Below are positions 10,696 through 41,906 of a DNA stretch of 49,001 nt, one piece after another (the first letter of the stretch is position 1; each line of letters begins with the position of its first letter). Source of the stretch: Candidatus Omnitrophota bacterium (GTDB lineage: Bacteria > Omnitrophota > Gorgyraeia > Gygaellales > Profunditerraquicolaceae). A program made the translations under genes and the position numbers. The notes below the pieces were generated by a model, which ran no database searches, was not told where the DNA came from, and was given only the letters and a program-made list of their open reading frames with translations. The stretch is from the NCBI GenBank assembly GCA_028710685.1, contig JAQTTQ010000003.1, forward strand, positions 1 through 49,001. The letters are read 5' to 3'.

Positions 10696-12465
10696 TTATT
10701 TCTCCTCAATAAGAGGCTTATAGTTAAACCCACTCCATTTTATATCCAGATGGCTACAAAATTCAAGCACATTTAATCTCACCCCGTGGACAAGAATAGA
10801 TAAAGGCCCTAAAACAATATTTAAAAAATGGCCTACCAAGAGTATCAGCGAGGTCAACAGCCCCGAGATAAAGTTTCCGAAACCCACCTCCATTGCCATT
10901 TTATTAAATGCATCTGCCACAGCCAGGGTAGCTAATCCTACTGCAAAAAGACGGATATAAGAAACAATGTCTGTAAAATTATTCATGGCGTTAAAAAGCA
11001 GGGCCCCTAATCCGCTGCCTATAGCCTTAAAGATATTTTTCTGAGGGTTACTAAATAAAACAATCAAAAATGCCCCGGGGATCAAGAGATAGAGATAAAA
11101 CCCCGCAAGGGCCTCACCTAAAACAAGCAGCTTAGCGATAAGAAAGGCTGTCCACAATATCAGTATCCATCCTATATCCGCCAGGAAGGAGGGTGCGGGA
11201 AATTTTAAGATCCCCTTCCAGGCATGCGCGATACTCAAATGCAGGGCTCCTAAAAAGAAACAAAATGACTGCATATTTTTATCATTGCGCAAAGAAGGAA
11301 GCAGCGGCTTAACCCAGACAGGAAGCCATTCTTGGCCGAAGAATGTGGCGGTAAGTACTCCCCAGATAATGGCACAACCGCTTAAAAGGTATAAAAGAAT
11401 AAAAACCGACTTATCATTGCATCTAAAACCCCATTTTTTCTCTGCCCAGAAGGTAAGAATTAAATACGCGGACCCGTATCCGGCATCACCGATTAATATA
11501 CCGAAGAATAATGAGAAAAAAACGAGAAACCACAGGCTTATATCCAACTCCTTATATCCCGGGACAACCTCAATTATCCTGAAAACAGGGTTAATTATAC
11601 TCAACCACTTAGGGTTGCGCACCAAGGTCGGGATACTATCGCCTTCTGCGGGGTCAGAGGTTAAAACAGCCCATCCCCAAGACCTGGCAGATTCTTCGAT
11701 CTTATCCTTAGAATCAAATGGTATATATCCTTTAATATACATTAAGGCCCCTTCCTGGGCCATCCCTGCCAATGCCTCATGAAACTGAATCTCCCGGATA
11801 AGCTTATTACGGGTTTCTCTTAAAAGGTCCAGATAAACAACCTGCCTTAAGAAATCAGCCTTCAGTAATTCAGCGGTTTTGATATCTTCGGCAAACCTCT
11901 CCTGCATTCTAATTAGGGAATCCTTTGGCAATTCTACCTCCTTAAAAGGAATCCCTATATCAGCCTGCGTAAAAATAACGCAGTTATGGAGCTTGCCCTT
12001 ACTGCTTACCTTTTCCAGGTAAGCCCCCTTAGGAAGCTGGGCTATCTGCTCATCGGAAAGTTTATAAAAACCCGCGGATATGCCGTTTACACCAAGGCGG
12101 TTAATCTCCTGCGGGTCAAAATCACCCCATTCTCTCAATTTCTCGATTTTAGAAGAAAGGGTTAAAGAATACTCCTGCAGCTGCTGATAGCGCTTGTTTA
12201 AATCGATAATATGGCGCGCTAATACATCCCACTCTGCCGTTTGCTTATTTCCTGTATCAACGATATCCTTTTTATCTATCCCCTCCAATAAAGATATCGC
12301 CTGGACTAAAAGGGATAGGTCCTTGCTCAAGGCAGTAAGCTTTTCCCCTTTAGGGGTATTTAAATGCTCAACATGCAAAATACCTAACTTACGGACCTTC
12401 TCAAGTAAACCCTGGGCATCTTTAGCCTGCATCACCAAAAAAACTTTTTTCATCGGTACAATCAT
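10696..12465 (-). CDS. atpI: V-type ATP synthase subunit I
   Basis: MIVPMKK, FGILIGDAGYG, DIVSYIRLFAVGLA, HGVRLNVLEF. Confidence 0.93.
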   Translation of the reverse strand: MIVPMKKVFLVMQAKDAQGLLEKVRKLGILHVEHLNTPKGEKLTALSKDLSLLVQAISLLEGIDKKDIVDTGNKQTAEWDVLARHIIDLNKRYQQLQEYSLTLSSKIEKLREWGDFDPQEINRLGVNGISAGFYKLSDEQIAQLPKGAYLEKVSSKGKLHNCVIFTQADIGIPFKEVELPKDSLIRMQERFAEDIKTAELLKADFLRQVVYLDLLRETRNKLIREIQFHEALAGMAQEGALMYIKGYIPFDSKDKIEESARSWGWAVLTSDPAEGDSIPTLVRNPKWLSIINPVFRIIEVVPGYKELDISLWFLVFFSLFFGILIGDAGYGSAYLILTFWAEKKWGFRCNDKSVFILLYLLSGCAIIWGVLTATFFGQEWLPVWVKPLLPSLRNDKNMQSFCFFLGALHLSIAHAWKGILKFPAPSFLADIGWILILWTAFLIAKLLVLGEALAGFYLYLLIPGAFLIVLFSNPQKNIFKAIGSGLGALLFNAMNNFTDIVSYIRLFAVGLATLAVADAFNKMAMEVGFGNFISGLLTSLILLVGHFLNIVLGPLSILVHGVRLNVLEFCSHLDIKWSGFNYKPLIEEK

Positions 12466-13079
12466 GCTAAGGATTCCTCCAGGACTAATTCCTCAATTTT
12501 TCTTTTAGCGATCTTGCTGCGTCCTACGGCATTGGCCATCTGATCTCCGATATAGATCTTAATCAGGCGGATATTCTCTTCTGTCTCCGGAATTTTAACC
12601 TTTTCGAAAAGGTTAACCCTTTGCGCAGTCACTTTAAGCTCATGGCGCAATATCGAAATACCCTCTGCGATAATGTCAACCTCCGATTGCAAGGCTAATA
12701 TCCCCCTTAAGGCCTCTACCCCCAAATCCAGCCACAGGGGAGCAGAAAATAAGTCGTAATCCGCCGGCAGAAACGATGCCTCAATAAAAATTGGGATATC
12801 CACACCAGCAATATTTAAGAGCCTGCTCTTAATCTCATTCACGGCAAGCAAGGGTTTAATATCTACGGCCTCCTCACTTAAAAGCCCTGCCCAGGTTTGA
12901 GCCTGCTGAATTTTTTTATCCAAAATACGGCTTTTTTCATCCAGGAGAGAAAGCTGATGCAGGATCTCTAGCTGCAGTTGCTGCTTTTTTAATTGAAGGG
13001 TGGGAAGATAACGCTCATACTGTTTTAAGGAGTCGCGCTGCCGCTTTAATTCACCTTTAGTAAACTTAATCTTTCCCAT
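12462..13079 (-). CDS. atpD: V-type ATP synthase subunit D
   Basis: [31 protein letters not shown]; start placed at ATG 13079 rather than the track's 13097. Confidence 0.9.
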
Positions 13080-14367
13080 TTGGCCAATACGCCTCAATCA
13101 CTGAACGCTTTATCCCTGTCTCCTCGGGGGTGAAACAATCTGCGAGGATACGCCAGCCTAAATCCAGGGCTTTCTCCAGCGGGATATTCACGCTTAAAGA
13201 CATTAACTCTTTCTCAAAAAGACCGCCGTATTTAAGAAGCTTGATATCCCAGGGGCTCATCTTAAAACCCATGGCCTGCTTCTCAAGTGTCAATCGATAA
13301 TTAGCAAAGAGCTGTATCATCGTATCCATCAGCGTCCTGTGGTCTAAGCGGGTTTTACCGTTTACCTGCTGCTTAAGCCTAGAGAGCGAACCAAAGGGCT
13401 CGATAACTCCCCCTTTAAGATAAAACTGCCCTTCAGTAATATACCCGGTGTTATCGGGAACAGGATGGGTAACATCATCTCCGGGCATAGTAGTTGCGGC
13501 TAATATAGTGATTGAACCGGCCCCTTCAAAATCAACGGCCTTTTCATAACGCAAGGCTAGCTGACTGTAGAGGTCTCCGGGATAACCGCGGTTTGAGGGA
13601 ACCTGCTCCATAGTTATGGATATCTCTTTAAGCGCATCACAGAAATTAGTCATATCCGTAAGCAGAACCAAAACGCGCTTGCCTTTTAAGGCAAAATTCT
13701 CGGCGATGGCCAGGCTTATATCGGGGACTAATAAACATTCCACTACGGGGTCAGCGGCAGTATGAATAAATAATATTGAACGGGAGAGAGCCCCTTTTTC
13801 ACTTAGGGTATCGCGGAAAAACAAATAATCATCGTACTTTAACCCCATCCCGCCTAAGATAATAATATCTACCTCGGCTTGAATGGCAATGCGCGCTAAA
13901 AGGTCATTATAGGGCTCCCCGGCAATAGAAAAAATCGGCAGTTTCTGAGACTCCACCAGGGAATTAAAAACATCTATCATTGGTATACCGGTACGGATCA
14001 TTTTATCGGGGATAATCCTTTTTACCGGATTTACTGACGGGCCTCCGGTATCAATAAGATTTTCCGAAAGCTTAGGGCCTTTATCAAGAGGCAGGCCGCT
14101 GGCGCTAAAGATCCGGCCCAAGAGCGCATCCCCGCTTGCCACCTGCATGGGATGATTCAAGAAACGCACCTTATCCTTAGTGGATATACCGCGGCTTCCG
14201 GCAAAAACCTGTAAGGAAACCTTTTTACCGTCGAGACTAATAACCTGCGCCAGGGAAGTCCCGCGGCTTGTGGCAACCTCCGCGATATCCGCATACCCTA
14301 CACCCTCAGCCTCTACAATAATGACATCACCGGCGATCTGTATAATATTTGTATAAACTTTATGCAT
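13066..14367 (-). CDS. atpB: V-type ATP synthase subunit B
   Basis: [49 protein letters not shown]. Confidence 0.95.
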
Positions 14368-14379
14368 TATGCATTCCCC

Positions 14380-16119
14380 TTAAGCACTGCCTTTTTTATT
14401 TCCTTCTATAAGTATATCCAGCTCCTCTTCGATCTTACGAAATTCCTCAAGGTTAAATTCCGTAGAATTCCAGCCCTTAAAGAGCTGTTTCAGTTTTTGA
14501 AAGAATTGCAGTGCCTGATTCTTCTCTTTAAAATCAAAATTACCCTCCAAGATACCGCGGATAAACCCGAAAATATATTCCTGTCTTTCCTGTGAAGTTG
14601 CCTCATCCACAGAATCAAAGGCATTTTGCTGCAGGTATACCGAATCAAAAAATTCACCCTTAAGATAATCAACGTAATCTTGCAGGGATGTCCCTTCCTC
14701 TCCGATCACCTTCATCATCTGCATAATATTATTACTTTTTATTAAAACCTTATGCCCGAGCTGCCTATCGGCTTCCTTAATAAAGCTCTGATATTTACTC
14801 CAACTTATTAAAGGATCTATTGCCGGATATTTTCTTGCGTCTGAACGCTCCCGGGATAAACCGTGAAAGGCACCGACCACCTTTAATGTTGCCTGAGTTA
14901 CCGGTTCCTCAAAATTGCCTCCGGCAGGGCTAACCGTGCCTCCGATAGTAACTGACCCAAGATCTCCGCTATGCAGACGGACAAGCCCGGCCCGTTCATA
15001 AAATGAAGCTATGCGCGATTCAAGATACGCAGGAAAGGCCTCTTCCCCCGGGATCTCCTCAAGCCTGCCGGACATTTCCCGCATTGCCTGTGCCCAGCGG
15101 GAAGTTGAATCCGCCAGCAGCAATACATTCAACCCCATCTGCCTATAATATTCGGCGATCGTAACTGCCGTATATACGCTGGACTCCCTAGCGGCAACAG
15201 GCATAGAGCTGGTATTGCAAATAATTACCGTTCTGTCGCTTAAGGGCTTATTGGTCCTTGGGTCAACAATATTGGGGAATGTCTTTAATGTTTCCACTAC
15301 CTCCCCGGCGCGCTCACCGCATGCAGCAATAATTACGATATCAACCTGCGCATGCCGGCTAGTCAACTGTTGCAATACGGTCTTGCCCGCGCCAAATGGC
15401 CCGGGGATACAATATGTACCTCCCCTTGCCACCGGGAACAATGAGTCTATTAACCGCATTTTTGTCACCAGGGCCTGGGAAGGCTTTAACTTTTCAGCAA
15501 AGGCCTTGATAGGAATTTTTATCGGCCAGAACTGGCGTAGATAAACATCGCAGATCTTACCTTCTTCGTTTTTTAATTGTGCTATTTTTTCTTTTACGGT
15601 GTATTCTCCTGCGGGGACAATATAAACTACTTCCCAAACTCCCTTTAGATTAAAAGGAACCATGCAATAGTGTTTAAATATCTTCTCCGGCACAGAACCC
15701 AGCCTGAATCCGGAAATTACCCGATCCCCTAGCGAGGCCAGAGGCGTAAAGTCCCATTTTACTTTATCGGATAAGGCTTCTAAATATATTCCTCTCTTAA
15801 GAAAAAAACCATATTTTTGTGCTAAGGCAGGAAGCGGATTCTGCAGGCCATCGAATATCTGCCCCAAAAGCCCCGGCCCTAATTCTACAGAGATGAGTTC
15901 ATTCGTAAATTCAACCTTATCGCCTACCCCAAGACCGGAGGTGCTCTCGTAAACCTGCATCTGGGCTAATTGCCCGCGTACCCTGATAACTTCGGATTTT
16001 AAGCGTTCATTCTTATGCAAAATATAGGCAGTCTCATTCTGGACAACTGCGCCCTCAACATTTGCGCTGACCATATTGCCGTTAACCCTAGAGATATATC
16101 CGGTTCTTATATTATTCAT
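14380..16119 (-). CDS. atpA: V-type ATP synthase subunit A
   Basis: Walker A GPFGAGKT, CGERAGE, DSTSRWAQAMREMSGRLEEIPGEEAFPAYL. Confidence 0.96.
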   Translation of the reverse strand: MNNIRTGYISRVNGNMVSANVEGAVVQNETAYILHKNERLKSEVIRVRGQLAQMQVYESTSGLGVGDKVEFTNELISVELGPGLLGQIFDGLQNPLPALAQKYGFFLKRGIYLEALSDKVKWDFTPLASLGDRVISGFRLGSVPEKIFKHYCMVPFNLKGVWEVVYIVPAGEYTVKEKIAQLKNEEGKICDVYLRQFWPIKIPIKAFAEKLKPSQALVTKMRLIDSLFPVARGGTYCIPGPFGAGKTVLQQLTSRHAQVDIVIIAACGERAGEVVETLKTFPNIVDPRTNKPLSDRTVIICNTSSMPVAARESSVYTAVTIAEYYRQMGLNVLLLADSTSRWAQAMREMSGRLEEIPGEEAFPAYLESRIASFYERAGLVRLHSGDLGSVTIGGTVSPAGGNFEEPVTQATLKVVGAFHGLSRERSDARKYPAIDPLISWSKYQSFIKEADRQLGHKVLIKSNNIMQMMKVIGEEGTSLQDYVDYLKGEFFDSVYLQQNAFDSVDEATSQERQEYIFGFIRGILEGNFDFKEKNQALQFFQKLKQLFKGWNSTEFNLEEFRKIEEELDILIEGNKKGSA

Positions 16120-16120
16120 A

Positions 16121-16654
16121 TTAGTTCCTGCCGAGGGCTGCTTTTAAAACCATCTCGCTATTGGTATTGTAGACTTTATCCCAACGGATTAGGATCTTAA
16201 GCTTTAAGGCATAGACAATTAAGCTATCGATATCAAAATAATGCCCTGCGCTTACCTCATCCAAAAAACGCCACCTCTCTAAATCTAAGGATTTTTCAGC
16301 CTCAAGTATATTTTGATTACGGTATGCCGTCATTGCTACGTGCCTTACTGCCGCTGAAAAGTACGCCTCATTGCGCAGGTATTTTAAAGGATCTGCCTTC
16401 ATCCTTGCGGACCGGGCGCGCACTAACTCGTTACGTAAGACAAGATTAAAATGATGCCATTCTCTTAGAAGCGGCGTATCCTTCAAAGAAACCTGATAAT
16501 CAGAAGCAGTTACCGCCTCCTTAACCTTTCTTAAATCAACCTTGGACACAGAATATAAACAGGTATCAAAGAAATCCTCCAGGGAAAAAGGAGGACTTGA
16601 ATTAAAAATGAGATACGGCAGGCTGGAGATTAAATATGTATAATATGAAGGCAT
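16121..16654 (-). CDS. DUF2764 family V-ATPase accessory subunit
   Basis: YYTYLISSLPYL N-terminus and HYFDIDSLIVYALKLKILIRW C-terminus; located between subunits E and A. Confidence 0.75.
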   Translation of the reverse strand: MPSYYTYLISSLPYLIFNSSPPFSLEDFFDTCLYSVSKVDLRKVKEAVTASDYQVSLKDTPLLREWHHFNLVLRNELVRARSARMKADPLKYLRNEAYFSAAVRHVAMTAYRNQNILEAEKSLDLERWRFLDEVSAGHYFDIDSLIVYALKLKILIRWDKVYNTNSEMVLKAALGRN

Positions 16655-17260
16655 CTATTCCAGGTTGAACGCTTTCGTCAATTCCTTATTAAGATACGAA
16701 CTTATATATTCTGCCAGGGACCGGTCTGAAAAATCAAAATGCGACTTGCCGGAATCAAAGCTTATGGTAAAACCTGAGGTTATGTCATCACAAGACTTCA
16801 TTACAATACCGCCCTTGATCTCATCGGACAACTTTCCCAGAAAAACACCTTTCATCTTTTCTAAATCTTCCTTGCTGAATAAAGCTTCAATTGTATCCGG
16901 ACTATTTCCTTTTGCATATTCCTTAATTAAGAGCTTAATCATCCCGGCCATTTCCTGGGGGGTGAGGGCCTGGGAAACCTTCTCCCGGACAATACCTTTA
17001 AGCAAGGCGCTGATTTCTCCGCGCAGAGAAATTAAAAAATCTCTCCCTGCCTGCTTCAATGCGGAATCAGTAGAACCCTTCATCTTTTCAGCCTCTTCCT
17101 TGGCCTTTTGGATAATAAGATCTGCCTCTTGCCTTGCCTTTGCGATAATTTCCGCAGATCTGACCCCGGCCTCATTTATAACCCTGAGAGATTCTTCCTG
17201 GGCCTTTTGAATTCCTTCTTTTTGAATCTTTTCTAATAATCCCTTAATCTCCTCTGGCAT
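16655..17260 (-). CDS. atpE: V-type ATP synthase subunit E
   Basis: LLEKIQKEG N-terminal coiled coil, SGFTIS...FDFSD C-terminus; first gene of the cluster. Confidence 0.88.
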   Translation of the reverse strand: MPEEIKGLLEKIQKEGIQKAQEESLRVINEAGVRSAEIIAKARQEADLIIQKAKEEAEKMKGSTDSALKQAGRDFLISLRGEISALLKGIVREKVSQALTPQEMAGMIKLLIKEYAKGNSPDTIEALFSKEDLEKMKGVFLGKLSDEIKGGIVMKSCDDITSGFTISFDSGKSHFDFSDRSLAEYISSYLNKELTKAFNLE

Positions 17261-17927
17261 ATATCTCTCCTGACATGGCTTTAGCAGTTGCCTTAGGGTC
17301 TTGGGCTTCTAATATCGGCCGGCCTACCACAAGAAAATCGCTCCCCGCGGCTATTGCCTCGCTAACGGTAGCAGTCCTCTTCTGGTCGTTTTTTACCCCT
17401 CCCTCAGGCCTAATGCCGGGGGTTACGATAACAAACTTACTCTTGATATTATCCCTTAACATTTTAGCTTCTTGGGCAGAGCAGACCACCCCATCCAGGC
17501 CAGACTCTATCCCCATACGGGCCAGAGTCAAAACATCGCTAGACTTAGCCTCTTTGCTGGTTAGTACCGTGACTCCTATTAAAAGGGGTTTTTTAATGCG
17601 CAGCTTTCCCGCTTCATCCCTAGCAGCAAAAACAGCCTCCCTAATCATTTCTTCATCGCCTAATATATGTAAAGTTATTATCTTCACCCTATGCCTTACC
17701 GCCATACGCACTGCCTTAGCCACGGTATTGGGTATATCAAAGAATTTCAGGTCCAGAAATACTTCAGAGCCTTTTTTATTGATAACCTCGATGATCTTCG
17801 GCCCGCAGGCAGTAAAAAGCTGCGCCCCGACCTTGAATATTTTTATTACCGGGGAAAGCTTGTTAACAAAATACCTTGCCTTCTCCAGGCTATCCACATC
17901 TAATGCTAAAATTATATCAGCTTTCAT
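17244..17927 (-). CDS. pyrF: Orotidine-5'-phosphate decarboxylase
   Basis: ILALD, FKVG, FLDLKFFDIPNTV, VTPGIRP, VVGRPI. Confidence 0.95.
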   Translation of the reverse strand: MKADIILALDVDSLEKARYFVNKLSPVIKIFKVGAQLFTACGPKIIEVINKKGSEVFLDLKFFDIPNTVAKAVRMAVRHRVKIITLHILGDEEMIREAVFAARDEAGKLRIKKPLLIGVTVLTSKEAKSSDVLTLARMGIESGLDGVVCSAQEAKMLRDNIKSKFVIVTPGIRPEGGVKNDQKRTATVSEAIAAGSDFLVVGRPILEAQDPKATAKAMSGEIYARGD

Positions 17928-18840
17928 AAATTAAGCTTCCGGTGAGGCTGTGTATATCTTTAATTTTTTTCCGTTTAAGATACTTGCCTAAACCGGAAAT
18001 AATCTCAACGCTTACCCGGGGATTGATAAAATTTGCGGTCCCTATGCTTATAGCGGATGCCCCGGCGATAAAGAATTCTAAAGCGCTGGGAGTATCTATT
18101 ATACCACCCATTCCGATAATTGGAATTTTAATCTTATTGTATGCCTCCCAAACCATCTTCAGGGCTACCGGCCTTATTGCCGGTCCGCTTAAACCGCCTA
18201 CCACTGCCGCAAGCCTGGGGCTCTGCCTTTCGGTATTAATACTCATGCCGGATAAAGTATTAATCAGGGCCAGGCAATCACTTCCCGCATCCTCGGCAGC
18301 CTTAGCAAGGTCACTAATACAAGTAACATTAGGGGACAGCTTGGTAATTAATGTTTTTGCCGTTATCCGGCGTATAGATTTTACAATACTATAAGTTGCT
18401 TGGCAGTCCTGGGAGATTAAAGATTCCTGGCCCATAACATTAGGACAGGAGATATTAAGTTCCAGGGCAGATACCGCCTTCAGCTTATTTAATCTTTTAG
18501 CCAATTCAATAAATTCCCTGGAGTCATCTTCAGAGGCAATACTCATAATAATAGGTATACCCAGCTTTTCAAGGAAGGGAAGCTTGTCTTTTAAAAAGGC
18601 CTCTAAACCCGGGTTTTCTAAGCCTATGGAATTAAGCATCCCTGAAGGAGTCTCGCAGGTACGCGCAGGAGGATTGCCACGGCGCGGATTCAAGGTTATA
18701 GTCTTGGTAACAATAGCCCCGAGTTTTTTTAAATTAATAAAGCCCTTGAATTCCTCGGCATAACCGAATGTGCCCGATGCCACCATCACCGGATTCTTTA
18801 ACTTAAGCTTGCCTATTTTAACCGCAAGATTAACTCTCAT
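17917..18840 (-). CDS. pyrD: Dihydroorotate dehydrogenase class 1B catalytic subunit
   Basis: ASGTFG, NSIGLENPG, NISCPN, KLSPN, GGLSGPAIRP. Confidence 0.95.
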   Translation of the reverse strand: MRVNLAVKIGKLKLKNPVMVASGTFGYAEEFKGFINLKKLGAIVTKTITLNPRRGNPPARTCETPSGMLNSIGLENPGLEAFLKDKLPFLEKLGIPIIMSIASEDDSREFIELAKRLNKLKAVSALELNISCPNVMGQESLISQDCQATYSIVKSIRRITAKTLITKLSPNVTCISDLAKAAEDAGSDCLALINTLSGMSINTERQSPRLAAVVGGLSGPAIRPVALKMVWEAYNKIKIPIIGMGGIIDTPSALEFFIAGASAISIGTANFINPRVSVEIISGLGKYLKRKKIKDIHSLTGSLIYES

Positions 18841-18843
18841 CTC

Positions 18844-19617
18844 TTACCAGATTAGCTCCTTGGCATAAAAAACCGGGCCTTCCTTGCATACCCTCTTCAG
18901 GCCATTTTTTGTTTTAACCACACATCCCAAGCAAGCACCTATACCGCAGCCCATATGCTCCTCTAAGGAAACCTGGGCTTGCAGATTATTAGCTATAGCA
19001 ATATTACAGACCTCCTTAAGCATAGGCCCTGGCCCGCAGGCATATAGCTGCATTGCCCCTTTTGCCGCCTTCTCCGTTGCTATAATATTTTTTAATAAAT
19101 CAGTCACCCTGCCGCTAAAACCCCGGGAACCATCATCTGTAGATATCTTAACATCGCTTCCTGAATTCCGAAACTCTTTTTCGCATAAAACCTGATCCCT
19201 TGTCCTTGCACCGATTAAAATAAGCTTATCCCTGGACTTAATTTCTTTGGATAAAAAAAGTAGCGGCGCCACGCCTATCCCCCCTGCGATTAAAATAACC
19301 CTTTTCCCGCGCGCCCCCACGTAATCAAAACCTTTGCCTAAGGGGCCGATAAGATCCAAATAGTCCCCGCTTTTCTTACCTGAAAAAGCCCGCGTCCCTT
19401 CTCCTACAACATTATAGAGAATCTCCAATTTACCGCCAAAGATATTATGTATGCTAAATGGCCGCCGCAGAAAAGGCTTAAGGCCTTCGGATATTCTTAC
19501 GTTTAAAAACTGCCCCGGTTTGGAAGCCCTACAAAGGGAAGGGGCATTAACGATACAATGCCAGCAGCTCCCCTTAAACTTTTTATTGGATGTTATCTTT
19601 GCTTTTATCTGTAACAT
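18844..19617 (-). CDS. pyrK: Dihydroorotate dehydrogenase electron transfer subunit
   Basis: RRPFS, GGIGVAP, MGCGIGACLGC...CKEGPVF [2Fe-2S] motif. Confidence 0.93.
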   Translation of the reverse strand: MLQIKAKITSNKKFKGSCWHCIVNAPSLCRASKPGQFLNVRISEGLKPFLRRPFSIHNIFGGKLEILYNVVGEGTRAFSGKKSGDYLDLIGPLGKGFDYVGARGKRVILIAGGIGVAPLLFLSKEIKSRDKLILIGARTRDQVLCEKEFRNSGSDVKISTDDGSRGFSGRVTDLLKNIIATEKAAKGAMQLYACGPGPMLKEVCNIAIANNLQAQVSLEEHMGCGIGACLGCVVKTKNGLKRVCKEGPVFYAKELIW

Positions 19618-20317
19618 TATCAGGATTAATAAAACGGATTAAATATACGCACAAAAGGACAAATAAAAAAAACACTATAACCAGCCCAAGCAATTCTTTT
19701 AAGAAGAGACCTATTCCTCCGTAGCGCAAATCCTCCCATGATTCAATCAAAAGAATTAAAACTAAAACCGCAATTATCGAGCCGATTTCTTTTTTTACCC
19801 ATTTCAGCTTCAGCGGAAGATACTGCAGCATATCCCTGTTGAAAAGCGCTTCTACCGAAGGAAAGATACGGTTAGGGACATCTTTGCAATAATCCGCATA
19901 TTTCTCAGCGAAGGAGAGTTTTAGTTTTTTCTCCTCCTTATATACAAGTAAAATATACCGTATGTAAAAAAAACATAGGAAAATTATGACTACCCACCAT
20001 TTAAAAAGCATCAGCACGGCCCCGAAACCGATTAAAATTATACCTAAATACATCGGATTGCGCACCAATGAATACGGACCTGTCTTTACTAAATCAAATC
20101 CGTTTTTTGAATTTTCAGACTTAAACCCGCGGGCAGAAACCCTGATGAGCTGACCCAGTAAAATAAAGCCGATACCAAAGATTTCAGCTATAGAGTTATC
20201 CCAGCCAACAGCATTTCTTCGGAAAAAAATCGCCGGGAAGATAGCCAATATAACAACTGCCAAAAACATCACTATACCGTTTATCTTAAGCCTCTTCTTC
20301 ATACTTTTTTCTGGCAT
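19583..20317 (-). CDS. Isoprenylcysteine carboxyl methyltransferase (ICMT/PEMT)-family membrane protein
   Basis: LVKTGPYSLVRNPMYLG, EEKKL...Y..Y...VP, several TM helices. Confidence 0.8.
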   Translation of the reverse strand: MPEKSMKKRLKINGIVMFLAVVILAIFPAIFFRRNAVGWDNSIAEIFGIGFILLGQLIRVSARGFKSENSKNGFDLVKTGPYSLVRNPMYLGIILIGFGAVLMLFKWWVVIIFLCFFYIRYILLVYKEEKKLKLSFAEKYADYCKDVPNRIFPSVEALFNRDMLQYLPLKLKWVKKEIGSIIAVLVLILLIESWEDLRYGGIGLFLKELLGLVIVFFLFVLLCVYLIRFINPDNVTDKSKDNIQ

Positions 20318-21108
20318 TTAGGGCAAAAGTAAGTCCCCCTCCCCCCCAGCGCAGTCCTTTCTATTAAAGATTTACAGACAGGGCATGGCTTATCTTCCCT
20401 TCCGTAAACCTTATGGTATTTCTTATAATCCCCCTTGCCTCCGGATAGCCTAACATAATCATCTACCGAAGAACCGCCGCAACTAACCGCCTCTGCTAAA
20501 ATATCCCGCATAGAATTAAAGAGGGCCTCTTTTTCCCTAGGAGAGAGTTCACAGGCTTTGCGTTGAGGATTTATTTTAGCAGAAAAAAGTATCTCTGCGG
20601 CATAAAGATTTCCTATTCCGCTGATAAATTGCTGGTCCATTAACAAAGGCTTAATCTTAGTTTTCTTACGGGAGAGCATATCCTGAAACTGGGTTAAGGT
20701 CAAGTCCTTTGGTTCAGGCCCCAATCCCTGGATAAATTTTAGATCCCTCCAGTCATCTAAAAGCCTCAGATCCCCAAAAAGCCTTTGATCATTGAAATCC
20801 AGGTCCTTGCCGCTGGAGAGGTGAAAAGTAACCCTAGTGTCTTTTTGCTTCAGGCCGGGATAAATTAATTGACCGGTCATCTTTAGGTGTATAGTAAGAG
20901 ACTTGGCGTTTGATAGCTCCATTATCAAAACCTTCCCCCGTCTCAATACGCGGTTAATTCTTGCCCCCGTCAATCCCTGTTTAAATTTAGAAAGTGAAGG
21001 CTCGCGTATAACCTTGGGGTTGTAAACAGATATCCCCGTAATCTTCTTACCGACAACTATCTGCTCTAAATCCCTCTTAATAGTCTCAACCTCCGGCAGC
21101 TCCGGCAT
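20299..21108 (-). CDS. mutM: Formamidopyrimidine-DNA glycosylase
   Basis: MPELPEVET, RRGK, HLKMTG, GIGNLYAAE, C-terminal CPVC...CPKCQ zinc finger. Confidence 0.95.
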   Translation of the reverse strand: MPELPEVETIKRDLEQIVVGKKITGISVYNPKVIREPSLSKFKQGLTGARINRVLRRGKVLIMELSNAKSLTIHLKMTGQLIYPGLKQKDTRVTFHLSSGKDLDFNDQRLFGDLRLLDDWRDLKFIQGLGPEPKDLTLTQFQDMLSRKKTKIKPLLMDQQFISGIGNLYAAEILFSAKINPQRKACELSPREKEALFNSMRDILAEAVSCGGSSVDDYVRLSGGKGDYKKYHKVYGREDKPCPVCKSLIERTALGGRGTYFCPKCQKKV

Positions 21109-21110
21109 CT

Positions 21111-24100
21111 TTATTTCTTTCTTTTTTTATGATACGACTGCAAAGACTTTACCTCTAAATCTTTTTTCAGCAACGCCTCGATACCGCTTACGGTAGCCTG
21201 GGCAGCGGATATACTGGTGGTATAGGGGATATTATACAAAATTACATGGGAACGAATTTTAACCTCATCCTGACGAGGTATCCTTCCCGAAGGCGTATTA
21301 ATAACCAACTGTATCTTGCCGTCCTTCATCAAGTCCAGGATATTCGGCCTGCCTTCAGCTATCTTCGGCAGGACCTTTACCTTAATCCCGCTTTTATTGA
21401 GGGCATCTGCGGTACCGGTACTGGCATATATATTAAAACCTAAATCCGCCAGCTTCTTTGCGATAAAAATAACCTGTCTCTTATCCCTGTCCCGCACAGA
21501 GATAAAAACATTACCCTTTCGGGGAAGCTTTTGCCCGGCTGCAAGCTGGCTCTTAATATAAGCCCGGCCGAAATCCTTATCAATACCCATAACCTCTCCG
21601 GTAGACTTCATCTCCGGGCCCAATATTACATCCACTCCCGGAAAACGGTTAAAGGGAAATACCGATTCTTTTATCGCTACACACTCTGGTATTATCTCTT
21701 TGGTAAAGCCCAGGTCTTTAAGTTTCTTGCCCAGCAGAACTTTAGTGGCCAGCTCTGCCAGGGGGACTCCGATAACCTTAGATACAAACGGTATAGTCCT
21801 AGAGGCCCGGGGGTTAACCTCTAAAACATAAACCTTCTCATCTTTCACCGCATACTGTATGTTCATTAATCCTACCAGGCTTAATTCTTTAGCCATCTCA
21901 TATGTTGCCTGGCGTATCTTTTGTAATATGCCCTGAGAAAGGGTATAAGTAGGAAGAGACATTGCCGCATCCCCTGAATGTACGCCGGCATATTCAATAT
22001 GCTCTAAGACCCCTCCGATAACAAAGGTCTCGGCATCACCGATTAAATCAACATCCACCTCTATGGCGTCTTCCAAGAACTTATCAATTAAAACCGGATG
22101 TTCACCTGAAACCTCGGCTGCCTCTTTAATGAATTTCTCCAGCGCCTCATCATCATAGGCTATCTCCATAGCCCTGCCCCCTAAAACATAGGAGGGCCTG
22201 ACTAAAACCGGATAACCTATTTTCTTAGCCACGTCTTTAGCTTCATCAAAATTAAAGGCAGTCCCGTTTTCCGGCTGCAACAATTCTAGCTTATGCAGCA
22301 TATGTTTGAAACGTTTTCTATCTTCAGCGATATCGATACTCTCCGCAGAAGTACCTAGGATATTTACCCCTGCCTTACGCAGTGAAACAGCTAAATTCAA
22401 CGGAGTCTGGCCTCCGAATTGCACAATCACCCCCATCGGCTTTTCAAGTTCGATAATATTCATAATATCTTCAAATGTAAGCGGCTCAAAATAGAGCCTA
22501 TCCGATGTATCATAATCAGTAGATACGGTCTCGGGGTTACAATTAACCATAATGCTGTCTACCCCCTCCTCTTTTAAGGCATAGGCGGCATGGCAACAGC
22601 AATAATCAAACTCAATGCCCTGGCCGATCCTGTTAGGGCCTCCACCTAAGATTACCACCTTCTTATTTTTACTCTGCCTTGACTCGTCTGCTGTTTCATA
22701 AGTAGAGTAATAATATGGCTGCTTAGCCGCTACTTCTCCGGCGCAGGTATCTACTAATTTATATACCGCCTTTACGTTTTGTTTTTTCCGTGCTTCCCTC
22801 ACCTTGGCCTCCCTGGAATTTAAAATAAATGCCAATTGATGATCGGAGAAACCGTTTAATTTAGCCACCTTCATTAGCTCAAGGGGTAATTTAATCTCCT
22901 CATCAATCTTATTATTCCTATACTTCATTATCTCCTCTTCTATCTCTACTAATTCTTTCATATTATCAACAAACCAACGGTCCATATCAGAAAGGGCGCA
23001 GATTTCATCTGTTGATATCCCCGCCTTAAACGCGTAGCGGATATAAAAAATCCTTTCATCATTGGGCTGGCGGATTTTGTCGCGTATCAATTGAAGAAGC
23101 CCTTTGTCAGCCTTTTTAAGATCCTCGTCGCTTAACTTATCCTTGCCGTCACAGCCAAAACCAAAGCGCGATATCTCCATAGAACGGATGCCTTTCTGAA
23201 ACGCCTCTTTAAAGTTTCTTCCTATGGACATTACCTCCCCCACTGCCTTCATTGACGTGTTTAAGACCCTCTGTGCATGAGGGAATTTCTCAAAGGTAAA
23301 ACGGCAGATTTTAAATACGCAGTAATCTACCGTTGGCTCAAAAAAGGATGTAGTCTTGCCGGTTATCTGGTTCATCACCTCGGGCAGGGTATAGCCGACC
23401 GCTAGCTTTGTAGCAACGCGGGCAATAGGAAGCCCGGTTGCCTTTGAGGCTAAGGCAGAAGAGCGTGAAAGCCGGGGGTTGACTTCAATAATAACGATAT
23501 CCCCGTTACGCGGATTCTGGCCAAACTGGATATTTGCTCCTCCTGCGGTTATACCGATACGCCGAATAATCCGTTTAGATAAATTTACAAAATTATTATA
23601 CTCTTGAGCAGTCAGCGTCTGGGCAGGGGCCACCACAATGCTATCCCCGGTATGCACCCCCATCGGGTCAACATTTTCCATAGAGGTAACCATAATAACA
23701 TTATCGCAACAATCGCGCATTACCTCAAACTCAATCTCTTTCCACCCCAATACAGACTGCTCAACTAAAACCTGATGCACCGGGCTTGTCTCTAAACCTT
23801 TGGCTAAGAATTTTTCCAACTCTTCCCGGTTATAGGCAATTGATCCGCCGCTGCCGCCTAAGGTATAAGCCGGCCTTAATATGAGCGGAAACCCTATTGA
23901 AAGACCTATCTTCATTCCTGCCTCTACAGAAGTAGCGATTCCGCTCCTAGGGGTATTAACGCCTATCTCCTGCATTGCCTTTTTGAACAGGTTCCTATCC
24001 TCGGCGCAGGATATAGCACTCACTGAGGCACCGATAGACTCAACCCCGTATTTTTTCAAAACTCCCTGCTTCATTAAAAAGAAAGCAAGGTTTAACCCCG

Positions 24101-24380
24101 TCTGACCGCCTAAAGTCGGCAATATAGCATCCGGGCGCTCTTTAGCGATTACCTTTGTAACCATTTCAATAGTCAAAGGCTCTATATAAGTTACATCTGC
24201 CATACCAGGGTCAGTCATTATGGTAGCCGGATTTGAATTAATCAGTATAGTAAAATATCCCTCTTCCCTCAACGCTTTACACGCCTGGGAGCCCGAATAA
24301 TCAAATTCGCAAGCCTGCCCTATAACAATCGGGCCGGAGCCAATCATCAAGACCTTTTTTATATCCTTTCTGCGCGGCAT
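21111..24380 (-). CDS. carB: Carbamoyl-phosphate synthase large subunit
   Basis: [18 protein letters not shown], duplicated ATP-grasp halves, [18 protein letters not shown] domain. Confidence 0.97.
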
Positions 24381-24383: not shown

Positions 24384-25460
24384 TTAATCCCTCCCTAACA
24401 TTTTCATGAATTTAATGAATACTTCGTTAGTTTCATGGAACCCAGGAGAAACAGGCATATACTGTACGCCGATAATCTTAAGCGCCTTACTCTCGATCCC
24501 CTCTACCGTCCGGTCATTCAAATTATAGCCGCTGATCTTTAAACCTTTAATCCCCAACAAAGAATCATGGTCTAAGATATACGCATGGTTTTGCGCAGTA
24601 ATTTCACCCTTAAAGGAGGAAGGGCTTTGTATCGGATAATTAACCCCCCGATGGCCAATCTTTAATTTATTAATCTTTGCGCCTAATGCCATAGCTAAAG
24701 CTAGATTGCCTGAGGCTATACCTAAAATAGGTAACTTGCCGATTAAAGGCCTTATATTCCCCGCTACCTTCTCTAATCCGGGAAGATCCTCCGGGCCGCT
24801 TGAAATAATTAAACCCTTGGTTTTTAATCTAAGGATCTCTTCCCCGCTTGTGCTATGCGGCAAAAGCTTCAAGGAACAGCCCAGAGACTCTATCTGGCGC
24901 ATAATACTTCGGGTTACGCCCAAATCCAGCACCGCCACCCTCTTACCTGCAGATTTTCCCGAATGCACAACTTTTTGCGTTGATACCTTATCAATTAAGG
25001 CTAAAGATTTATCTTTGCCCAGCGCGGCTATCTTTGATAACAGCTCCTTACGGTCAAAGGTTTCTGTGGAAATTACCCCCATCATAGAACCCTTCTGCCT
25101 TAAATGCACGGCTAGAGTACGGGTATCAGCCGAATGCATAAAAAGCAGACCGTTACGCTTTATAAAGCTCCCCAAGCTCTCCCGGGCTTGCCAGTTGGAA
25201 AATATGCGCGAACTTTCTTTGATAACCAATCCCGCCAGCCAAACTGTATCCGATTCGTTAAACTTAGCCGCACATCCGTAGTTGCCAACCAAGGGATATG
25301 TTAAGACTAATATTTTATCAACATTAGCAGGGTCGGTCATCATCTCCTGATAGCCCACCACTGCGGTATTCGTAATAACCTCGCCAACCCTTTCCTTTTG
25401 TAAGGTTTCTGATTCTCCTATAAAGCTTTTTCCGTCTTCTAACATAAGAATTGCTTTCAT
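24384..25460 (-). CDS. carA: Carbamoyl-phosphate synthase small subunit, glutaminase catalytic residues substituted
   Basis: GEVITNT..GYQEMMTDP, TYPLVGNYG, GHRGVNYP, ITAQNH; but GIASGNL replaces GICLGHQ and QYMPV replaces QYHPE. Confidence 0.88.
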   Translation of the reverse strand: MKAILMLEDGKSFIGESETLQKERVGEVITNTAVVGYQEMMTDPANVDKILVLTYPLVGNYGCAAKFNESDTVWLAGLVIKESSRIFSNWQARESLGSFIKRNGLLFMHSADTRTLAVHLRQKGSMMGVISTETFDRKELLSKIAALGKDKSLALIDKVSTQKVVHSGKSAGKRVAVLDLGVTRSIMRQIESLGCSLKLLPHSTSGEEILRLKTKGLIISSGPEDLPGLEKVAGNIRPLIGKLPILGIASGNLALAMALGAKINKLKIGHRGVNYPIQSPSSFKGEITAQNHAYILDHDSLLGIKGLKISGYNLNDRTVEGIESKALKIIGVQYMPVSPGFHETNEVFIKFMKMLGRD

Positions 25461-25933
25461 TTTGACCCTCCGGCCTTGCCTGAATATAATAGTTTTCTTG
25501 CTAAAATTACTGCCCTATCAACTCTTTCTGCCTGTATAACCCCCGGGATATCCCAGGATTTAAGCGATATAACCGGAATGCCAAACTGCAGACAATAGGC
25601 AATCTCTGAAAGGGTACCTGCCTTGCCTGGCAAGGCAATCACAACATCTGCGCTTTTAACCACAAGTACATTTCTTGCCAAACCTAACCCTGTAGGAAGA
25701 ACAATATCGATGTAAGCATTAGCTTCATCTTTATTATAACCAGGTATAATACCTATAGTTAAGCCTCCTCCTGTCCTAAAACCTTTACAAACCGCCTCCA
25801 TCACTCCACTTAATCCCCCACAAACAATCAAATCAACCACTTCTGAGAGTTTTTTGCCTAATTTATAGGCTACATCCTCCACTTTTACATCACAATCATG
25901 ACCACCAATTACCGCAACTATTTTTTTTCTCAT
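25457..25933 (-). CDS. TIGR00725 family (LOG/SMF-like Rossmann fold) protein
   Basis: VAVIGG, CGGLSGVMEAVCKG, TGLGLARN, GTLSEIAY. Confidence 0.82.
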   Translation of the reverse strand: MRKKIVAVIGGHDCDVKVEDVAYKLGKKLSEVVDLIVCGGLSGVMEAVCKGFRTGGGLTIGIIPGYNKDEANAYIDIVLPTGLGLARNVLVVKSADVVIALPGKAGTLSEIAYCLQFGIPVISLKSWDIPGVIQAERVDRAVILARKLLYSGKAGGSK

Positions 25934-26014: not shown

Positions 26015-26299
26015 TTAATAGGCCGACTCTGCAAATATCTCCTGCGCAGTTATCTCTTTTGCCACAGCATAGGATAATTCGGGAATTCGTACCTCAAAAT
26101 CCTTGGTCTGTGATTTTAAAAAACCCTTAATTGTAAAAACAAAGCTTGAGATGGATACGGTCTTAACATACAAAAGGACCCTAAAGGCAACACAATTATA
26201 ATCCTTCGAAGACTCGTTAGTAACCTCCCCCTGCATAGTGAGACAATCTTCTAGCTTATTTTGCTTGTATTGAATATTACGGAATTTAAACTGAAGCAT
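26015..26299 (-). CDS. Small hypothetical beta-rich protein, FxLYD-like
   Basis: Fills the gap between the EndoQ-like gene and tRNA-Arg; GEVTNESSKDY...FRVLLY...TKDFEV resembles the FxLYD pattern. Confidence 0.5.
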   Translation of the reverse strand: MLQFKFRNIQYKQNKLEDCLTMQGEVTNESSKDYNCVAFRVLLYVKTVSISSFVFTIKGFLKSQTKDFEVRIPELSYAVAKEITAQEIFAESAY

Positions 26300-26309: not shown

Positions 26310-27548
26310 CTAGAATAAATTTAATTGTTCTTCGTTCTTATCCTGCGCTTGGTTTGTATCAACTATAGAAATAGTACCATATTCTCCATCAAATCCGGCC
26401 TTAATATCCACCTTGCCTTCTCGCACCCTTAAAACCCCTTCTACAGCCTTTGGCGACAAACCTTTCAATAAATCATTTTTTGTAAGGCGCATTAATACTT
26501 CAAATTCTGTACCTAGTTTGGCTAAGGCAGCCTGATACTCCCTGGCTACCGAAATGCTTGTTTTAGCTACTCCCTTTGTATCCGCAATTATTTCATCTAA
26601 AGGGATAAGTCTTTTAAATGGGATCGCGCCTACGGGCTTAAATCCTTCCGGCCTATCCGCTAATTTTTCAACGCGGTTTACAACCCCTACCGTAACCTGC
26701 CTGCCGCACTTAGGGCATCTGCCGTTATGCTCCTTAGTCTCTTGGGGAGACCATCTTATCCCGCACATCCTATGCCCGTCAAAATGGTACTTACCTTCTT
26801 CAGGAAAGAATTCTACCGTATAAAGAAACCTGCTCTTATCCTTTGTCCTTAAAACATCGCGTATAGTTTTATAATCCAGCTCGCAGTTAAATACGTTAGA
26901 CTCACGGCCGATCTTCTGCGGAGAATGCGAATCACTATTTGAAATCAGGGTAAATTTATCTAATGCCGACAGCCTCCAGTTCATCGCCGGATCGCTAGAG
27001 AGCCCTGTCTCTAAGGCAAAGATATTTTTTGTCTGCTCTTCAAAGCAATCCTCTATTTTATCAAATCCTGACATTGAACCGAAAAGAGAAAACCATGGCG
27101 TCCATATGTGCCCGGGGACGATCATACAGTTTTCATCAATATTAAAAACTATCCTTGCCAGCTCTGCGGCATCCAGGCCTAAAATGGGGCGACCATCCGA
27201 AGCCAGATTCCCTATGTGGCTGAGTTTTTCATTAATCTTATCTACCGTCTTAAAAGACGGAGCAAAGATAAGATTATGTATCCTGTACACCTTACCGCGC
27301 TTTGAATAAATACTGCTTACCTCAGAAGTCAGAATAAAATAAATACCGTTATGTTTATACAGCCCGTTTGCGCAATCTTCTAAATTATGCCTTAATTCCT
27401 CCAGCCATAAATGATGGGTAAAATCCCCAGTCCCCATCAAGGTAATCCCCTTAAGCTTTGCCCAATAGGCTAAATTCTTAACATCCATATCCCGGCTGGT
27501 AGCACGGGAATATTTAGAATGAATATGGAAGTCTGCTATGAACTCCAT
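26310..27548 (-). CDS. PHP-domain endonuclease Q family protein (TIGR00375-like)
   Basis: DFHIHSKYS, GTGDFTH, HIWTPWFS, ETGLSSD, NSDSHS, GKYHFDGHRMC...CPKC zinc module, GFDGEYG. Confidence 0.82.
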   Translation of the reverse strand: MEFIADFHIHSKYSRATSRDMDVKNLAYWAKLKGITLMGTGDFTHHLWLEELRHNLEDCANGLYKHNGIYFILTSEVSSIYSKRGKVYRIHNLIFAPSFKTVDKINEKLSHIGNLASDGRPILGLDAAELARIVFNIDENCMIVPGHIWTPWFSLFGSMSGFDKIEDCFEEQTKNIFALETGLSSDPAMNWRLSALDKFTLISNSDSHSPQKIGRESNVFNCELDYKTIRDVLRTKDKSRFLYTVEFFPEEGKYHFDGHRMCGIRWSPQETKEHNGRCPKCGRQVTVGVVNRVEKLADRPEGFKPVGAIPFKRLIPLDEIIADTKGVAKTSISVAREYQAALAKLGTEFEVLMRLTKNDLLKGLSPKAVEGVLRVREGKVDIKAGFDGEYGTISIVDTNQAQDKNEEQLNLF

Positions 27549-28796
27549 TGATGAATTGCCCCCTTATAAATCGTATAAGCAACAACCCCCTTAAGGTCCT
27601 TTCCGATAAAACTAGAGTTCTTGGACTTGGATAAAAACAAATCCTTTGCAACCTGCCATTTTTGCCCCGGTTCAATTATAGCCATATCCGCAACCCGGCC
27701 CTCGCCTAAAGAGCCTTTATCAACCCCTAAAATGCGAGCCGGATTCAAGGACATCTTCTCCACTAACCCAAACCAATCTAAAAACCCTGTATCCACTAAA
27801 ACGGTTATCGCAGCTGAAAGCTCTGTCTCTAAGCCAACCACCCCAAATTCAGCGCGCTCAAACTCAATCTCTTTCTCATTTTCTGTATGCGGGGCATGGT
27901 CCGAGGCAATCACATCAATAATCCCGTTTGCCAAGCCTTCTCTTATCGCCTGTACATCCTCCTTAGAACGCAGGGGTGGGTTCATCTTAAAATTGGTATC
28001 ATACCCTAAAACCGCATCTTCGCTAAAAGTAAAATAATGCGGTGCAGTTTCACAGGTAACCCTTAGACCTTTTTTCTTAGCCCGGGCAATAATCCCTAGA
28101 GATTCTTTACAGCTTACATGCGCGATATGTACCGCTGCCCCTGATTGCGCGGCAAAATCAACATCCCTGGCCACCCTTTTATATTCCGACTCTTGGGAGA
28201 TCCCCTTTAAACCCAGCCTAGTTGAAGTAAACCCTAAATTAACCACTCCAAAATTAGAAAGCGCCTTATCCTCGCTATGGCATATAATAGGAAGTCCGGC
28301 CTTTTTCGCCGACCTTAAAGCTGCCAGCATTATCTCATCTGAATCCACGGAAGATCCGTCATCGGAGAATGCCACTGCCCCTTCCTTTTTAAGCATAGCC
28401 ATATCAACCACCTCTCTACCCTTGCGCCCGGTAGTGATAGCGGCACAGATAAGTACGTCTGCCTGCGCACTTTTACTGATTGCTGTTTTTAAGATTTCTA
28501 TACTGCTTAAAGAGTCAATCGCCGGATCAGTATTAGGCATAGCCAATACCGCAGTAACCCCCCCGTGTAAGGCAGCCTTAGTTGCCGTATAGATAGTCTC
28601 CTTATCCTCCCTGCCGGGCTCCCTTAAATGCACATGCATATCCACTAACCCGGGAATAATAATTTTCCCTGAGGCATCCAACACCTTGGCATCGTCAGCC
28701 TTAATCGCCTTAGACACCTTGGATATCTTGCCGTTCACGATAAAGATATCCAGGGTATCGTCAATTTTATTGGCCGGGTCAATAACCCTGCCGCCC

Positions 28797-28822
<26 letters not shown>
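27536..28822 (-). CDS. pyrC: Dihydroorotase
   Basis: DMHVHLREPG, FSDDG, KMNPPLR, SDHAPH. Confidence 0.95.
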
Positions 28823-30319
<1,497 letters not shown>

Positions 30320-40096: not shown

Positions 40097-40110
40097 TTCG
40101 ATCTCCTTAC

Positions 40111-40207
40111 TATTTATTATTTAATATATTAAAATAGCAATAGTAGTAATACGGCGCTAATCTGTGTATAAGGTTACAACCCCCCTGTCGTTATATAGTT
40201 ATACCCA
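40111..40207. other. oriC: oriC unwinding region (DnaA box, GC motif, DnaA-trios, AT cluster)
   Basis: Minus strand TTATACACA (40163-40171)-gatta-GCGCCG-TATTACTACTATTGCTA-AT cluster; second box TTATACCCA at 40199-40207. Confidence 0.75.
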
Positions 40208-40233
40208 AAAAAGGCCTTGGATATTCCTGGGAT

Positions 40234-41595: not shown

Positions 41596-41618
41596 ACCTT
41601 GAATAAATCTGTGGAAAA
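41577..41618. promoter_or_regulatory. Three DnaA boxes at the dnaA 5' end
   Basis: TTATCAACA (41577-85, 1 mismatch), TTATTCACA (41588-96), TGTGGAAAA (41610-18). Confidence 0.75.
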
Positions 41619-41715
41619 TTTTTTTGTTTTAAATATTCAACCAGGCTTATCTGGGACGGAAAAAACACGCTCTTCAATTTACTAAATTGCTTAATTTCAT
41701 TTAAAAGCGTAAAAG

Positions 41716-41793
41716 ATTATAACAGAAACCAAAGCAGTTGCAAGTAAAAAAGATAAGCGTTAGTTATTATACAATGCTTTTGGCAGACGTCAA
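41716..41793 (-). promoter_or_regulatory. Two tandem dnaA promoters
   Basis: TTGCAA-16-TATAAT (41743 to 41716, extended TG) and TTGACG-16-TATAAT (41793 to 41766). Confidence 0.7.
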
Positions 41794-41906
41794 TCAAAAA
41801 TAACTCATCCTTAATTCAGGGGGCTTCTTTTACCAAGGAAGGCCTGCAGTTTTTAGGCTGACCAGGTCCCCGGTTATTCGCCGCCGCCTGAATTTATCGA
41901 CGAGTC

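Follow-up and report, generated by a model that had tools for sequence, protein, structure and literature searches.

Carbamoyl-phosphate synthases (CPS) of all types but CPS1 use glutamine as their nitrogen donor (PMC4655335). Here we analyze a bacterial carA-carB locus in which the small subunit has lost all three residues of the glutaminase triad. The locus lies in a 49,001-nucleotide stretch of DNA from Candidatus Omnitrophota bacterium (hereafter the window; GenBank assembly GCA_028710685.1, contig JAQTTQ010000003.1, positions 1 to 49,001). It comprises a triad-less CarA paralogue of 358 amino acids, here termed CarA* (gene carA*, 24384-25460, minus strand), and its partner, a full-length large subunit of 1089 amino acids (carB, 21111-24380, minus strand). 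Judging from the sequences of both subunits and of their relatives, carA*-carB probably encodes a CPS that depends on ammonia, retains CarA* as a conserved noncatalytic subunit, and has a re-plumbed route for ammonia.

In the type II enzyme of E. coli, CarA-CarB (PDB 1jdb, 1bxr, 1c30), residues Cys232, Ala251, and Ala314 of CarB constitute a narrow gate where the ammonia tunnel ends; mutations there inhibit the passage of ammonia, and C232 belongs to the rate-limiting ammonia gate (PMC8674909, PMC6241538). The E. coli enzyme can use ammonia in the absence of glutamine (PMC3017870), and mutants with a blocked (G359F/Y) or perforated tunnel can no longer use glutamine yet still make carbamoyl phosphate from ammonia (PMC4655335). 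In vertebrate CPS I (human CPS1, PDB 5DOT/5DOU), the triad is described as incomplete and the inability to use glutamine is attributed to Ser294, which corresponds to E. coli Cys269. Next to Ser294, Thr295 (Leu270 in E. coli) is of importance in frog CPS1. Gln318 (Gly293 in E. coli) obstructs the ancestral tunnel, and ammonia must therefore have another point of entry (PMC4655335). CPS1, which needs N-acetylglutamate, is one fused polypeptide of ~1500 amino acids, as opposed to the two genes found here. We found no description in the literature of a triad-less bacterial CarA or of an ammonia-type bacterial CPS.

A CarA paralogue without a glutaminase triad

CarA* contains both domains of a CPS small subunit, PF00988 (4.8e-39) and PF00117 (2.3e-27). 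It scores 324 bits against TIGR01368, a narrow margin above the cutoff of 307.35. Alignment to PF00117 and TIGR01368 had been proposed in the initial annotation of this DNA, which was made from the sequence alone and described a CarA glutaminase that looked catalytically dead. Numbered according to E. coli CarA by alignment to PDB 1bxr_B, the nucleophile elbow GICLGHQ of E. coli is replaced by GIASGNL, with Ala249 (GCC, 24714-24716) at the position of the nucleophile Cys269. The sequence QGHPE is replaced by QYMP-V, with Met335 (ATG, 24456-24458) at the position of His353, and Glu355 is lost directly past Met335 through a one-residue deletion in the family alignment. The oxyanion stretch SNGPGDP reads SSGPEDL, with Glu224 (GAG, 24789-24791) at Gly243, and Val273 (GTT, 24642-24644) occupies the position of Gly293; all four codons lie on the minus strand. 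Thus, where a glutamine-hydrolyzing CarA has the triad Cys269-His353-Glu355 and the oxyanion residue Gly243, CarA* has Ala, Met, no residue, and Glu. The motifs GHRGVNYP and ITAQNH (Asn311/His312) are retained, as are Gly241 and Gly359. The open reading frame is intact, and carB starts 3 nt past its stop codon. Re-verification of the codon positions in the DNA bore out the initial annotation exactly in its reading of positions 269, 353, and 355 and of the oxyanion segment, and equally in its statement that a full-length reading frame with preserved structural motifs lies 3 nt from an intact carB.

Sequencing or assembly error was considered as a source of these replacements and rejected. Ala for Cys requires two base changes and Met for His three, and they are therefore not single read errors; moreover, the same state is found in more than 130 independently assembled proteins. 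An AF2 model of CarA* (pLDDT 82.9, pTM 0.86) predicts that the small-subunit fold is kept, with TM scores of 0.85-0.87 relative to E. coli CarA (0.86 to both 1a9x_B and 1m6v_B) and of 0.82 relative to the N-terminal moiety of human CPS1. It is close to certain that CarA* is unable to hydrolyze glutamine through the class-I mechanism.

The residue pattern was counted in 138 members of the CarA* clade and in 92 canonical CarA proteins. Cys269, His353, and Glu355 are each kept in 92/92 canonical proteins. By contrast, His353 is present in 0/138 clade members, in which residue 353 varies strongly (Y, I, L, M, C, S), and the 355 column is deleted in every one of them. Position 269 is Ser in 107 members, Ala in 24, Gly in 5, and Cys in 2, both of the latter lacking the rest of the triad. 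Glu occupies position 243 in 137/138 members and Val, Leu, or Met position 293 in 136/138; position 270 is Thr or Ser (Leu in E. coli), position 360 is Phe (Pro in E. coli), and position 361 is Asn, Asp, or Lys (His in E. coli). All orthologues from the same genus, family, order, and class (46-94% identity) lack His353 and Glu355, and all have Glu243 and one of Val, Leu, or Met at 293. About 20 positions of CarA* are newly fixed in the clade, including A47, N48, K51, F69, Q93, T202, E243, D245, Y295, E339, K346, F360, and E362, a pattern which points to remodelling rather than drift.

Several of the clade-invariant residues are acidic, which shows that the former pocket and its surroundings have come under new constraints. 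Together with the prevalence of Ser at position 269, they allow the reading that CarA* has remained hydrolytic by means of new catalytic machinery or by taking a different amide as its substrate, acting through Ser269 or through the acidic residues Glu243, Asp245, Glu339, and Glu362. We consider this unlikely. In E. coli, the C269S mutant (structure 1c30) is reported to bind glutamine without hydrolyzing it. CarA* of the window has Ala at position 269 and other members have Gly, and with position 353 hypervariable and 355 deleted there is no general base. Human CPS1, which has Ser at the position of Cys269, is likewise inactive (PMC4655335).

The dN/dS of carA* is 0.10 and 0.14 relative to the two closest genomes and is similar in the N-terminal and the GATase-like domain; relative to the same genomes, carB has values of 0.03-0.04, and pyrC and mutM have values of 0.10-0.12. 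CarA* is under purifying selection, and these values rule out a pseudogene. The initial annotation had argued for targeted loss rather than decay and had suggested a survey of orthologues and their dN/dS. Relatives share the substitutions, and neither an intact triad in all close relatives nor relaxed selection on this copy, the outcome which would have spoken against that argument, was seen. Given the purifying dN/dS, the intact fold, and the conserved operon, the loss is therefore targeted. An alternative in which CarB functions without a partner and CarA* is a remnant, either decaying or dispensable, appears very improbable to us. In the same genome pairs, CarA* shows 50-70% identity and intact CarA 66-79%, so that CarA* does evolve faster, and in one related genome carA* is broken into two frames (G018:C12:8464-9403, L063), either by an assembly frameshift or through real loss. 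Yet the gene is full length in 17/18 related loci and in 9/9 further loci, is kept across at least three phyla, and carries the clade-specific residues described above. The remnant reading is largely refuted.

The partner CarB and its lineage

The partner of CarA* scores 1488 bits against TIGR01369 (cutoff 1027), and all four CarB domains are present. It aligns without gaps to E. coli CarB up to residue 341, and from this alignment the genomic coordinates of residues 232 and 265 were computed by hand. At the position of E. coli Cys232, which forms the A314-A251-C232 ammonia-tunnel gate, the window CarB has Thr232 (23685-23687, minus strand), and at the position of Arg265 it has Val265 (23586-23588, minus strand); Ala251 and Ala314 of the gate are retained. 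The locus therefore resembles E. coli CPS in its two-gene layout, its small-subunit domains, its four CarB domains, and its fold (TM 0.86). It differs from E. coli CPS in the absence of Cys269, His353, and Glu355 and in the replacements G243E, G293V, and P360F of CarA* and C232T and R265V of CarB, which belongs to a separate clade.

We used the residues at positions 232, 234, 249, and 265 as a signature of CarB. Among the first 40 relatives, the signature is T232/M234/V249/V265 in 19/19 loci beside a dead (triad-less) CarA and C/I/T/R in 14/14 loci beside an intact CarA. The same rule holds for nine further dead-type loci, which belong to other families and to another class, and for three further canonical loci. 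In Planctomycetota and Limnochordia clusters, a Cys-less CarA is followed by a CarB with T232, M234, and V249 and with Thr or Ile at 265. A scan of named genomes with a single peptide pattern gave 80 loci, of which 79 combine an intact CarA with a C-I-T-R or C-M-V-R CarB, and the only dead CarA, in a "Clostridia" metagenome-assembled genome (MAG), is accompanied by T-M-V-V. In a total of 100 carA-carB pairs, dead CarA occurs with a CarB that has T232 and no R265 in 31/31 cases (Val, Thr, or Ile at 265), and intact CarA occurs with C232/R265 CarB in 69/69 cases. By gene position, carB is adjacent to the dead carA in all 31 loci, and the two products may also pair physically. I234M and T249V were rejected as markers of the dead type: C-M-V-R is found in Bacillales, Chloroflexi, Armatimonadota, and one archaeon, and the Bacillales, Chloroflexi, and archaeal representatives, as well as human CPS1, combine it with an intact or Ser-type CarA. 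Thr232 together with the loss of Arg265 is diagnostic of the dead type; M234 and V249 are not.

In an IQ-TREE phylogeny of the CarB N-terminal half, a long branch (0.35 substitutions per site, 99% SH-aLRT) separates the 31 T232 sequences from both the C-I-T-R and the C-M-V-R groups. The pairing with dead CarA and the single T232 clade therefore mark a separate lineage of CPS rather than a local accident. This T232 lineage spans Omnitrophota, Planctomycetota, and Limnochordia, at least three phyla. CarA* was also considered as a recent duplicate of the canonical Omnitrophota CarA, and this was rejected based on their separate clades in both the CarA and the CarB trees. In the same genome pairs, T232 CarB is conserved at least as strongly as canonical CarB. 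The long stem branch could also be taken to mean that the T232 CarB makes a product other than carbamoyl phosphate, which seems to us the most remote of the explanations considered here. The four domains, the TIGR01369 score, and an identity of 56-65% to canonical CarB argue against it, as do the position of the gene between pyrC and pyrK/D/F and its occurrence as the only CPS in genomes with aspartate transcarbamylase (ATCase) and ornithine transcarbamylase (OTC).

The comparison with CPS1, which the initial annotation had drawn while calling the loss in CarA* more complete, is apt in part. Both systems keep an inactive glutaminase-like domain; CPS1 uses ammonia, and CarA*-CarB is predicted to do so. 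The likeness extends to three CarA positions, namely 269 (lost in both, with Ser in CPS1 and in most of the clade), 270 (Thr/Ser), and 293 (bulky), the latter two being convergences beyond the one first pointed out. The loss is indeed more complete, because the triad of CPS1 is only incomplete whereas all three residues are gone from CarA*. The parallel does not hold for the mechanism. CPS1 keeps the equivalents of Cys232 and Arg265 (signature C-M-V-R), whereas the T232 lineage changes both; the Cys-Ala-Ala gate of human CPS1 (Cys648/Ala667/Ala729; PMC4655335) contrasts with Thr at 232. CPS1 and the T232 lineage are of independent origin.

Bacillus-type PyrAA/PyrAB resembles the window in its operon order pyrR-pyrB-pyrC-carA-carB-pyrK-pyrD-pyrF, in being a second, pathway-dedicated CPS, and in Met234 and Val249 of CarB. 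By contrast, the sampled Bacillales loci keep the CarA triad and Cys232/Arg265 of CarB, and their CarB falls into another clade. A further likeness is to an engineered enzyme. Kim and Raushel reportedly perforated the E. coli tunnel in 2004 through the small-subunit substitutions P360A and H361A combined with the large-subunit substitution R265A, whereupon glutamine use was lost and ammonia use was kept. If these residues are as reported, the same three positions are substituted in the T232 lineage (F360, N/D/K361, and V265). Unlike the engineered tunnel mutants of E. coli, the enzymes described here form a lineage that occurs in nature and carry far more co-adapted substitutions.

Distribution and source of nitrogen

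Of 301 Omnitrophota genomes sampled evenly, 26 (~9%) have the dead type: 18 belong to the family of the window, and the others are spread over five further families, of which one is part of a different class. The majority of the phylum has canonical CarA only, and the dead type is thus not a phylum-wide trait. One borderline dead-type match (G045) proved canonical. Beyond Omnitrophota, a search of 1.8 billion cluster representatives gave 64 proteins without Cys269 among the 150 best matches, mostly with Gly at this position. In a weakly resolved CarA tree, Cys-less CarA proteins are found in several places, and the well-supported branches force at least 8 changes. A single origin of all Cys-less CarA proteins is thus unsupported by this tree; the sampled partner CarB proteins are monophyletic. 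Among these Cys-less groups, the CarB partners were examined for two, and some losses of Cys269 outside the T232 lineage may be independent. Five of 120 protein matches lack Cys269 and/or His353 (one of these keeps Cys), and none of the five comes from a cultured carrier. Four of the five have no precomputed PF07722 match, and the same applies to one match which keeps both residues; a missing PF07722 match may be a rough flag of a triad-less CarA.

The dead type is the only CPS in six genomes, four of them 93-96% complete (G001, G006, G010, G260), one 96% (G042), and one 72% (G051). OTC is present above the curated cutoff in all three of these genomes that were examined for it (G001, G006, G010), as is pyrB, and an argB-like kinase gene lies beside argF in G001 and G006. 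Carbamate kinase was considered as another source of carbamoyl phosphate and rejected, since no arcC above the cutoff was found in any of the five near-complete dead-only genomes (G001, G006, G010, G260, G042). With the dead type as the sole CPS, OTC and pyrB present, and no carbamate kinase, CarA*-CarB must therefore supply carbamoyl phosphate to both pathways.

The source genome of the window (G000, 1.24 Mb, 90% complete) also encodes an intact CarA (GICLGHQ, QFHPE), which a genome search of the kind suggested in the initial annotation located on contig C43 (30978-33657; L064 3979-6703), directly after pyrG. It is followed by a 548-amino acid CarB N-half only, and no separate C-half was found in G000 or in seven other genomes with both CPS types. 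In three relatives without carA* (G015, G016, G012), the pyr operon contains a gene for a CarB C-half only, which shares 76-90% identity with the corresponding half of T232 CarB. The two CPS sets are not a binning artefact, given that both are on one contig in G155 and in G171. The intact CarA with its N-half may act alone or may borrow a full-length CarB. Cross-talk is thus conceivable, and with it a CarA*-CarB that is still glutamine-dependent, with ammonia delivered in trans by an amidotransferase, for which the intact CarA after pyrG is a candidate, and CarA* as an adaptor only. We regard this as improbable. Six genomes have no intact CarA at all, and the bulky residue at 293 and the lost residues of the glutamine pocket argue against ammonia arriving through CarA*. 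To our knowledge, there is no precedent for a trans-acting glutaminase feeding a CPS. The different glutaminase donor that had been offered as an option in the initial annotation is less likely than direct use of ammonia. Cross-talk between the two CPS systems keeps a small probability and cannot explain the dead-only genomes.

An ammonia-dependent CarA*-CarB would work as follows. The enzyme in the pyrimidine operon would take free ammonia in place of glutamine, and in relatives without another CPS it would feed arginine synthesis as well. CarA* would serve as a structural or activating subunit without catalysis. Val, Leu, or Met at position 293 would shut the old route from the glutamine pocket, in the manner of Gln318 in human CPS1, and NH3 would reach the carboxyphosphate site through an entry re-shaped by Phe360 and Asn/Asp361 of CarA*, Val265 of CarB, and the Thr232 gate.

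Several points weigh against this proposal. The ammonia dependence of the T232 lineage is an inference from sequence only. The parts given to positions 265, 360, and 361 are putative and follow what Kim and Raushel reportedly found in 2004. The Km of E. coli CPS for ammonia is poor, and that of the T232 lineage may be no better. The presence of an intact carA in the source genome is a further complication, which nevertheless does not rescue glutamine use for CarA*-CarB because the six related genomes hold the dead type only. Finally, neither an Amt transporter (PF00909) nor a glutamine synthetase (PF00120) was found in G001 and G006, two genomes of the same genus which are 95-96% complete. With the dead type as their sole CPS, these organisms would need passive entry of NH3 or NH3 released internally. 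G000 has an Amt transporter, and in the genus of the window the only candidate for glutamine synthetase is a ~740-amino acid GSIII-like reading frame. The absence of glutamine synthetase from G001 and G006, which may be glutamine auxotrophs, fits a glutamine-sparing rationale, an agreement that is suggestive only.

A more far-reaching interpretation is that enzymes combining T232 CarB with a dead CarA constitute a third, natively ammonia-dependent class of bacterial CPS. In these enzymes, Glu243, Asp245, Tyr295, Glu339, Phe360, and Glu362 of CarA*, together with Thr232 and Val265 of CarB, would form a path for the capture and entry of NH4+/NH3 with a physiologically useful affinity. We put this forward tentatively and hold it to be possible but rather doubtful. 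If correct, it would mean that small-genome anaerobes, some of them without glutamine synthetase, make pyrimidines and arginine without the cost of glutamine.

The T232 lineage represents a natural experiment on the most-studied enzyme tunnel, in which the gate residue Cys232 and position 265, a putative tunnel-wall residue, changed as the glutaminase was lost. Should the lineage depend on ammonia, an ammonia-type CPS would have arisen a second time and independently, and a conserved bacterial lineage crossing phyla would overturn the statement that all but animal CPS I use glutamine (PMC4655335). Triad-less clade members are called "glutamine-hydrolyzing" by NCBI and JGI (for example, P0005, P0006, P0045, and P0081), and metabolic reconstructions of Omnitrophota and other uncultured anaerobes would therefore contain the wrong nitrogen donor. 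These points are of relevance to CPS enzymologists and to models of nitrogen metabolism in uncultured anaerobes.

Genomic neighborhood

The carA*-carB genes are part of a minus-strand, co-directional array just downstream of the region of the replication origin. Its order is dnaA, dnaN, gyrB, gyrA, glmS, and a methylase gene; pyrR, pyrB, and pyrC; genes for an EndoQ-like PHP protein, a 94-amino acid open reading frame (ORF), and a SLOG/TIGR00725 protein; carA* and carB; mutM and an ICMT-like gene; and pyrK, pyrD, and pyrF. The head of the pyrimidine operon, pyrR-pyrB-pyrC, is at 27536-30316 (minus strand) and the tail of the same array, pyrK-pyrD-pyrF, at 17244-19617 (minus strand). The order pyrR-pyrB-pyrC-EndoQ-(orf94)-SLOG-carA*-carB-mutM-ICMT is conserved across the family. 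GlmS encoded in the window keeps its catalytic Cys, as the initial annotation had stated, and begins with MCGI.

The SLOG cluster-4 (TIGR00725, LOG-like) gene (25457-25933, minus strand) overlaps the start of carA* by 4 nt with its stop. It lies directly upstream of carA* in 14/18 related loci; the Planctomycetota and Limnochordia loci lack it. Its product probably does not belong to the CPS enzyme and may have a nucleotide-nucleosidase-type function tied to the pyrimidine pool. The EndoQ-like PHP protein (26310-27548, minus strand) has no Pfam match and contains an N-terminal HIHSKYS motif and a zinc-ribbon-like CPKCG motif. Its gene and mutM/fpg (20299-21108, minus strand) are both situated within the pyrimidine operon at positions conserved family-wide, which places genes for the repair of damaged bases in an operon for nucleotide synthesis. 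The 94-amino acid ORF (26015-26299, minus strand), also without a Pfam match, has a dN/dS of 0.01 and 97% identity relative to a genome of which the CarA* is only 85% identical. In the Planctomycetota contig L090, a 311-amino acid NAD synthase is encoded at 5011-5946, immediately upstream of a Cys-less carA; no glutaminase domain is among its listed Pfam matches, and by sequence it looks like the ammonia-dependent NadE type.

Directly after pyrF, genes of a V/A-type ATPase (a DUF2764-like subunit, A, B, and D) occupy 12462-16654 (minus strand), and near them ORFs of 589 (10696-12465) and 201 amino acids (16655-17260) have no Pfam match. The GC skew changes sign at ~40000-42400, with dnaA (40234-41595, minus strand), dnaN, gyrB, and gyrA on one side and yidC (42362-43912, plus strand) on the other; this region is probably the chromosomal replication origin.

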